Assembly: GCF_003334765.1 (NCBI RefSeq)
Contig: NZ_QOWT01000009.1
Strand: one strand, 5' to 3'
Source: Escherichia coli
GTDB lineage: Bacteria; Pseudomonadota; Gammaproteobacteria; Enterobacterales; Enterobacteriaceae
Length of the DNA stretch: 64,000 bases
This document shows, one piece after another, positions 62,822 through 64,000 of the stretch (positions are counted from its first letter, which is position 1; every line of letters starts with the position of its first letter). The position numbers were made by a program, and so were the translations under genes. The notes below the pieces were generated by a model. That model saw nothing but the letters and a program-made list of their open reading frames with translations, ran no database searches and had not been told where the DNA came from.

Positions 62822-62951
62822 AATGTCTGCCGCGTGATGGCTGTCACGCGGTATTTCGTTTCGTCACGTCAAAACTGACGACAGCCTGTTTTTCGTCAGA
62901 GTTTTGAATAAATAGTGCCCGTAATATCAGGGAATGACCCCACATAAAATG

Positions 62952-62967
62952 TGGCATAAAAGATGCA
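62952..62967 (+). promoter_or_regulatory. Sigma-54 (-24/-12) promoter of fdhF
   Basis: TGGCAT-aaaag-ATGCA with GG and GC 12 nt apart, about 50 nt upstream of fdhF ATG; upstream repeats tttcgtca at 62868 and 62911 are candidate FhlA UAS. Confidence 0.7.
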
Positions 62968-63018
62968 TACTGTAGTCGAGAGCGCGTATGCGTGATTTGA
63001 TTAACTGGAGCGAGACCG

Positions 63019-64000
63019 ATGAAAAAAGTCGTCACGGTTTGCCCCTATTGCGCATCAGGTTGCAAAATCAACCTGGTCGTCGATAACGGCAAAATCGTCC
63101 GGGCGGAGGCAGCGCAGGGGAAAACCAACCAGGGTACCCTGTGTCTGAAGGGTTATTATGGCTGGGACTTCATTAACGATACCCAGATCCTGACCCCGCG
63201 CCTGAAAACCCCCATGATCCGTCGCCAGCGTGGCGGCAAACTCGAACCTGTTTCCTGGGATGAGGCACTGAATTACGTTGCCGAGCGCCTGAGCGCCATC
63301 AAAGAGAAGTACGGTCCGGATGCCATCCAGACGACCGGCTCCTCGCGTGGTACGGGTAACGAAACCAACTATGTAATGCAAAAATTTGCGCGCGCCGTTA
63401 TTGGTACCAATAACGTTGACTGCTGCGCTCGTGTCTGACACGGCCCATCGGTTGCAGGTCTGCACCAATCGGTCGGTAATGGCGCAATGAGCAATGCTAT
63501 TAACGAAATTGATAATACCGATTTAGTGTTCGTTTTCGGGTACAACCCGGCGGATTCCCACCCAATCGTGGCGAATCACGTAATTAACGCTAAACGTAAC
63601 GGGGCGAAAATTATCGTCTGCGATCCGCGCAAAATTGAAACCGCGCGCATTGCTGACATGCACATTGCACTGAAAAACGGCTCGAACATCGCGCTGTTGA
63701 ATGCGATGGGCCATGTCATTATTGAAGAAAATCTGTACGACAAAGCGTTCGTCGCTTCACGTACAGAAGGCTTTGAAGAGTATCGTAAAATCGTTGAAGG
63801 CTACACGCCGGAGTCGGTTGAAGATATCACCGGCGTCAGCGCCAGTGAGATTCGTCAGGCGGCACGGATGTATGCCCAGGCGAAAAGCGCCGCCATCCTG
63901 TGGGGCATGGGTGTAACCCAGTTCTACCAGGGCGTGGAAACCGTGCGTTCTCTGACCAGCCTCGCGATGCTGACCGGTAACCTCGGTAAGCCGCATGCGG
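63019..64000 (+). CDS. fdhF: Formate dehydrogenase H selenoprotein FdhF, 5' portion (runs off window end); contains in-frame UGA (Sec) at 63436-63438
   Basis: N-terminal 4Fe-4S Cys motif CPYCASGC...C; reading frame stays open through the TGA to the end of the window. Confidence 0.93.
63436..63480 (+). ncRNA. Selenocysteine codon (TGA) plus downstream mRNA hairpin, i.e. the bacterial SECIS element of fdhF
   Basis: tga cacggcccatcggttgcaggtctgcaccaatcggtcggt: stem-loop immediately 3' of the TGA, loop ...ggtc...; same frame remains open afterwards. Confidence 0.8.

Follow-up and report, generated by a model that had tools for sequence, protein, structure and literature searches.

The window, a stretch of 64,000 nucleotides, ends within a gene on its forward strand that follows mdtP. 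An ATG at 63019 opens the reading frame, which meets a TGA at codon 140 (63436–63438) and then stays open to base 64000 (327 codons). The translation, the identity of the protein to solved structures, the RefSeq and K-12 annotation, and the best-matching protein family all assign this gene to fdhF. Its product, formate dehydrogenase H, is a [4Fe-4S] selenoenzyme with a Mo-bis-MGD cofactor and serves as the subunit that oxidises formate in the formate hydrogenlyase complex. The features discussed below are as follows.

62828–62853, forward strand: terminator-like hairpin, an inverted repeat with an 11-pair stem (6 G-C pairs) and the tail TTTCGTTTCG
62854–62907, forward strand: candidate FhlA enhancer (UAS), about 71–124 bp upstream of the predicted start
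62951–62967, forward strand: sigma-54 promoter GTGGCATAAAAGATGCA, with the −24 GG at 62953–62954 and the −12 GC at 62965–62966
62978, forward strand: predicted transcription start (motif centre 62959 plus 19), leaving a 41-nt 5' UTR
63007–63011, forward strand: Shine-Dalgarno sequence GGAGC, 7–8 nt before the ATG
63019–64000, forward strand: fdhF coding sequence, codons 1–327 of 715, cut by the end of the window
63431–63485, forward strand: SECIS (Rfam SECIS_2 model), with the lower helix at 63431–63435/63481–63485 and the main hairpin at 63438–63477
63436–63438, forward strand: in-frame UGA, selenocysteine codon 140 (Mo ligand), assigned from conservation, structure and published work (PMC4513850)
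63450–63466, forward strand: minimal SelB-binding upper stem-loop GGUUGCAGGUCUGCACC, starting 11 nt past the UGA, assigned from its fold and invariance

Identity of the gene

The 1201 nt between 62800 and 64000 are 100% identical to the sequence of E. coli K-12 MG1655 and of many other strains, where they are annotated as mdtP and fdhF, and 5420 of the 5426 complete E. coli genomes contain the same sequence. The encoded protein (residues 1–327) is identical to the entries 1AA6, 1FDI, 1FDO, 2IV2 and 7Z0T of the PDB, which carry the name 'formate dehydrogenase H'. The best-matching family is the NCBIfam equivalog TIGR01591 (formate dehydrogenase subunit alpha), to which the half-gene in the window aligns over profile positions 1–316 of 672. 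Its score of 527.6 bits lies below the cut-off of 666.25 only because the window end cuts the gene; the full-length fdhF of K-12, whose first 327 codons are identical to those in the window, scores 1089 bits against the same cut-off. The motif C-A-R-x-[U/C]-H, which marks the position of the metal ligand, is present as CCARV-U-HGP. Together, DNA and protein identity, family assignment and annotation bear out the gene name proposed in an earlier, sequence-only reading of this stretch.

The copy in the window shares with K-12 fdhF (b4079) the DNA of positions 62800–64000, residues 1–327 of the protein, UGA140, the SECIS, the 17-mer of the sigma-54 promoter and the neighbouring mdtP. There is no difference within the feature, apart from the cut at codon 327 made by the window end. 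Elsewhere, the window differs from MG1655 by approximately 17 SNPs or 1-nt indels and by a repeat-copy difference of about 300 nt. The region is fdhF itself and not merely fdhF-like, and every part of the finding is already known. fdhF is the founding case of selenocysteine insertion in bacteria. Decades of work have dealt with its promoter, enhancer, SECIS and crystal structure, and the present results leave that established picture as it was.

The control region upstream of fdhF

The 5' edge of the control region is formed by the terminator-like hairpin, which follows directly after the stop codon of mdtP (whose ORF ends at 62821). Further downstream lies the −24/−12 element TGGCAT-AAAAG-ATGCA (62952–62967), in which GG and GC are 12 nt apart, the canonical spacing of TGGCAC-N5-TTGCW. 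The pattern TGGCAY-N5-WTGCW has a single match in the 64 kb, although by itself it does not exceed chance expectation (0.46 matches expected per window; at least one match in 35 of 100 shuffles). The element is conserved: 79 of the 81 sequences compared retain TGGCA-N7-TGC, which is missing from a second fdhF copy of Raoultella and from one divergent isolate of Enterobacter. The 17-mer GTGGCATAAAAGATGCA corresponds letter for letter to OS41, a sigma-54 site detected by ChIP-seq upstream of fdhF (fold-above-threshold score 41, PSSM score 10.98) and listed as experimentally confirmed in EcoCyc (PMC4591121). The sigma-54 promoter recognised in the sequence-only reading is thus a site of documented occupancy.

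A sigma-70-like promoter was not found between 62700 and 63100. Transcription would begin at about 62978, if the start is placed 19 bp downstream of the motif centre by the rule used for the ChIP-seq sites, whose table gives a distance of 41 bp to the fdhF start (PMC4591121). The Shine-Dalgarno region CTGGAGCGAG forms a conserved block in the 81 sequences.

The segment between the terminator-like hairpin and the promoter is rich in short repeats. TTTCGT occurs at 62854, 62859 and 62891, so that 3 of the 19 copies in the window fall within 43 nt; TCGTCA is present at 62861 and 62893, and its inverted form TGACGA at 62876. The 8-mer TTTCGTCA occurs at 62859 and 62891, and there are two inverted repeats, TCAAAACT/AGTTTTGA (62869–62876/62900–62907) and CTGACGA/TCGTCAG (62875–62881/62893–62899). 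In an alignment of the 230 nt before the ATG (81 sequences), islands of at least 95% conservation stand out from diverged surroundings at 62860–62881, at 62889–62899, at the −24/−12 element and at the Shine-Dalgarno sequence. The first two islands hold both copies of TCGTCA and the inverted TGACGA, and they lie about 71–119 bp before the predicted start, a distance typical of sigma-54 enhancers. For a promoter of this type, the site of the cognate enhancer-binding protein is expected about 80–150 bp upstream. The UAS of fdhF reportedly lies at about −110, as described by Birkmann and Böck in 1989.

The region resembles other FhlA-dependent sigma-54 promoters (hycA, hypA, hydN, hyfA), which have the same −24 GG and −12 GC at the same spacing. 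The likeness extends upstream in the case of the FhlA-dependent hycA–hypA intergenic region, which likewise contains an enhancer region with the core TTTCGTC. Binding of FhlA upstream of fdhF has been reported (PMC11291172, PMC4987338), and fdhF appears among the FhlA-dependent genes for which formate is the signal (PMC4987338).

The match to the palindromic FhlA consensus is poor. The best upstream match to the 16-mer CATTTCGTACGAAATG agrees in 9 of 16 positions and so stays at background level, since 426 positions of the window score 9 or more; instead of a clean 16-mer palindrome, fdhF has TCGTCA-N9-TGACGA and a third TCGTCA block. A search with the degenerate pattern TGWCRAWRATGWCA, our reading of the consensus in PMC7658346, was uninformative, as it yielded 134 matches across the window when up to 3 mismatches were allowed. 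These results lend some weight to an alternative in which the TTTCGTCA repeats either belong to the T-rich terminator tail of mdtP or have arisen by chance, with the true FhlA site at another position. With 6 copies in the window versus 2.9 expected, the 8-mer shows no significant enrichment, and the TTTCGT at 62854, a poorly conserved copy, overlaps the tail of the terminator-like hairpin. By contrast, the two islands that contain the remaining blocks are conserved among the 81 species while the rest of the intergenic sequence has diverged, they are located where an enhancer would be expected, and their TTTCGTC core recurs in the hycA–hypA enhancer region. We therefore regard this alternative as improbable. 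The segment 62854–62907 fits a candidate FhlA enhancer in which the repeated blocks are putative contact bases. Of the proposal that the tttcgtca repeats represent an activator site, their placement and conservation stand, but the similarity to the FhlA consensus does not rise above background. Like the promoter pattern, the motifs are lifted above chance by their position, their conservation in 79–81 related species, and published experiments.

Selenocysteine at codon 140 and the SECIS hairpin

In the alignment with PDB entry 1AA6, a non-standard residue (X) is located at position 140, exactly at the TGA. This agrees with the sequence-only reading, which had interpreted the in-frame TGA as a selenocysteine codon and predicted a U at residue 140 of formate dehydrogenase H. 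When one genome per bacterial species was scanned, at least 584 relatives were found; the best 80, all Enterobacteriaceae with 90–100% amino-acid identity, were kept for comparison. Codon 140 is TGA with a continuing frame in 80 of these 80 species, and among them there was neither a sense codon for an amino acid other than Cys or Sec at this position nor a decayed downstream ORF. In distantly related homologs with solved structures, the aligned residue is Cys in 7QV7_S, 7BKB_D and 9WXB_B and Sec in 9T1S_L. Such an alternation of Sec and Cys at a catalytic position is the usual mark of a genuine selenoprotein site, which rules out a genuine stop at position 140.

The segment 63431–63485 matches the Rfam model SECIS_2 (RF01988), which represents the enterobacterial fdhF type, over its full length (model positions 1–55 of 55) with 87.1 bits (gathering score 70; E = 3.7e-19) and without any difference in structure. 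The related family SECIS_3 reaches 35.8 bits and thereby misses its gathering score of 63. The upper stem-loop GGUUGCAGGUCUGCACC folds as (((.(((....)))))), with the apical loop GGUC at 63457–63460, G23/U24 at 63458–63459, and the bulged U (U17/U18) at 63452–63453. This geometry exactly matches the published description of the E. coli upper stem-loop, which comprises 17 nt (nucleotides 15–31), lies 11 nt from the UGA, and depends critically on U17, G23 and U24 (PMC8659212). The SECIS of fdhF has been assigned to codons 141–153, and SelB binding and SelB-dependent insertion of selenocysteine have been documented, in living cells as well as in a reconstituted system, for fragments comprising codons 130–179 and 130–156 (PMC4513850). 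The model match and the published assignment confirm that the hairpin noticed 3' of the TGA is a bacterial SECIS. A match to the Rfam model snoZ43 at 63002–63040 (E = 5.3) was dismissed as chance.

An independent sign of selection on the RNA comes from silent sites. Third-position variation was analysed over 314 codons in the 81 sequences: the third base is invariant in 7.6% of the degenerate codons gene-wide versus 10 of 12 in codons 141–152, which form the least variable of 303 sliding windows of 12 codons. The upper stem-loop (63450–63466) is invariant in all 81 sequences. Folding and covariation, by which the sequence-only reading had proposed to judge the hairpin, support it weakly in the strict sense. 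The minimum free energy (MFE) structure coincides with the consensus structure of Rfam, and the stem-loop originally quoted (63439–63477) is the MFE fold, but the folding energy is no better than that of shuffled sequences (z = −1.05 for 56 nt, −0.91 for 42 nt and −0.67 for 17 nt). The z-score was dropped as a discriminating test because shuffled G+C-rich coding sequence folds about equally well. Among 20 distinct enterobacterial SECIS sequences, a near-invariant set, 96.3% of the cells are paired; the three one-sided changes all preserve pairing, and two-sided compensatory changes number zero. Two predicted pairs are broken in many species: of the 20 distinct rows, 11 have lost the pair at columns 17–39 and 4 that at columns 8–47. 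Covariation is not visible because the SECIS is too conserved within Enterobacteriaceae; the alignment was drawn from the best 80 of the at least 584 relatives. Support for the SECIS structure comes from the model score and from the purifying selection seen at silent sites; compensatory changes contribute nothing to it.

The unexceptional stability of the hairpin and the existence of homologs that function with Cys at position 140 would also be compatible with readthrough of the UGA without selenocysteine, for example by near-cognate tRNA-Trp or by insertion of Cys, with the hairpin merely slowing the ribosome. This explanation is very improbable, as the PDB entries show a non-standard residue at position 140, the apical loop and bulge recognised by SelB are invariant in the 81 sequences even at synonymous sites, and SelB with Sec-tRNA(Sec) inserts selenocysteine on an fdhF mRNA fragment in vitro (PMC4513850). 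The efficiency of recoding at UGA140 is 30–40% in vivo, and insertion on the same fragment in the reconstituted system is approximately 40% (PMC4513850). The idea that the TGA is a true stop, which leaves a truncated ORF or pseudogene of 139 codons with a decaying remnant, has a negligible probability, as both the solved structures of the full-length protein and the conserved frame past the TGA already refute it: a mechanical ORF list does end at the TGA (63019–63438, 139 aa), but the frame continues for 187 more codons in the window and for 575 more in K-12, the part encoded past the TGA is identical to that of the crystallised enzyme of 715 residues, TGA and open frame persist throughout the 80 species compared (the best 80 of at least 584), and a full-length SECIS match sits on the TGA itself.

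There is a slim chance that the constraint on the RNA reaches beyond the classical SECIS of 40 nt. Changes in the lower helix are confined to C-to-U exchanges opposite G: R138 and V139 fall within this helix, and at their four-fold degenerate sites the base is always C or U, either of which can pair with the G across from it. Synonymous variation is reduced between about codons 135 and 155, and a 121-nt fold around the SECIS is mildly better than its shuffles (z = −2.0). However, the Rfam model already includes the lower helix, and codon bias in a highly conserved active-site segment could equally account for the signal. If real, a larger structure could tune the efficiency of recoding or the speed with which the hairpin refolds between ribosomes.

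Proposed mechanism and related systems

The region almost certainly comprises the control region and the 5' half of E. coli fdhF, with a sigma-54/FhlA promoter and SECIS-directed insertion of selenocysteine at codon 140. Taken singly, the short motifs are not beyond chance, and the argument is built on context, on conservation and on identity to a characterised sequence. At the sequence level, it is carried by the protein identity, the conserved in-frame UGA, the SECIS match with its frozen silent sites, and the conserved −24/−12 element and upstream blocks. Sigma-54 occupancy, dependence on FhlA, the efficiency of selenocysteine insertion and the determinants of SelB binding are taken from the published literature. 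Experiments that bear directly on the main claim are on record, among them 75Se labelling, lacZ and luciferase fusions with or without the UGA/SECIS, structures of SelB with the SECIS, and sigma-54 ChIP.

In the proposed sequence of events, the sigma-54 promoter (62951–62967) would remain silent until the formate-sensing FhlA, bound at the TCGTCA/TTTCGT blocks about 71–119 bp upstream, opens the closed complex at the expense of ATP. Translation would start at 63019, and the mRNA just past UGA140 would fold into the SECIS hairpin, whose apical stem-loop (63450–63466), with its GGUC loop and bulged U, would bind the C-terminal domain of SelB. SelB-GTP carrying Sec-tRNA(Sec), the selC product with the anticodon UCA that is made by SelA and SelD, would thereby be tethered at the ribosome, and selenocysteine would be inserted in competition with termination by RF2. 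The resulting Sec140 is a ligand of molybdenum in the bis-MGD cofactor. For the biochemical steps, this account follows the cited papers and the established picture of the Sec pathway.

None of the components required for this step is encoded in the 64-kb window, which contains neither tRNA genes nor sel genes. In MG1655 (NC_000913.3), selB and selA (b3590, b3591), selC (tRNA-Sec UCA; b3658) and selD (b1764) are all annotated. The expectation that selABCD accompany the gene therefore holds for K-12, and all four are presumably present also in the source strain, given its near-identity to K-12.

Formate dehydrogenases of the Cys type, such as FdhF of the HDCR of T. kivui (7QV7), chain D of 7BKB and chain B of 9WXB, share the molybdopterin-oxidoreductase fold family and the motif C-A-R-x-[U/C]-H with the enzyme encoded here. 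Unlike fdhF, their genes have an ordinary Cys codon at the catalytic position, so that neither recoding of a UGA nor a SECIS is needed.

Overall, the interpretation given in the sequence-only reading is supported, including the exact coordinates of the apparent ORF of 139 codons and of the frame that remains open to the window end; the recoded UGA, the SECIS and the sigma-54 promoter could be recognised from the raw sequence alone. One correction concerns annotation. The claim that gene callers truncate fdhF is true of naive ORF finders, which return the product of 139 aa, but not of curated pipelines: both RefSeq/PGAP and the curated K-12 record contain a single fdhF coding sequence of 2148 nt that runs across the UGA. 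The locus is a practical reminder that selenoprotein genes end prematurely at the UGA in the output of naive ORF finders, whereas the current RefSeq handles fdhF correctly.

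Lineage of the window and its divergence from MG1655

The window carries a phnE homologue that appears to lack a single continuous reading frame.

39092-39724 and 39574-39942, plus strand: phnE homologue, apparently broken into two overlapping ORFs

In the K-12 reference strain MG1655 (NC_000913.3), phnE is annotated as a pseudogene and is likewise split, which suggests a K-12-like lineage for the window. The two sequences are not identical base for base: over 50 kb (window 1-50000) they differ at about 17 scattered positions, in each case by one base or by a 1-nt indel (e.g., at 13634, 17051 [a 1-nt indel], 20786, 24555, 28819, 39645, 41061, 43926, and 45692). 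The 3'-terminal 2616 bases, spanning mdtP and fdhF, do not differ from MG1655.

Noncoding RNA families

Rfam matches in the window include the following.

36304-36580, plus strand: array of three head-to-tail units of about 100 nt, each matching naRNA4/CssrE (95-111 bits)
39056-39136, minus strand: fourth naRNA4/CssrE copy, adjoining the phnD/phnE region
30473-30638, minus strand: enterobacterial sRNA STnc630, a strong, full-length match (181.8 bits)

The array lies between the yjdN and yjdM homologues and is longer in MG1655 by about 300 nt (three units). Coordinate mapping places the STnc630 match directly past proP, where it overlaps the small-protein gene pmrR beside basS.

Sequences upstream of fdhF

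An imperfect inverted repeat covers the -12 element of fdhF and the beginning of its 5' leader.

62958-62998: imperfect inverted repeat with 13-nt arms, 77% complementary

Because this portion of the leader is poorly conserved among genera, the repeat probably arose by chance.

The genome of Raoultella ornithinolytica (L080, NZ_BCYR01000010.1, compared with L073) encodes two copies of fdhF, each of which has TGA as codon 140 and retains the complete SECIS. Upstream of the second copy (91% identity) the sequence differs and lacks the sigma-54 promoter core TGGCA-N7-TGC; this copy may therefore be under different regulation.
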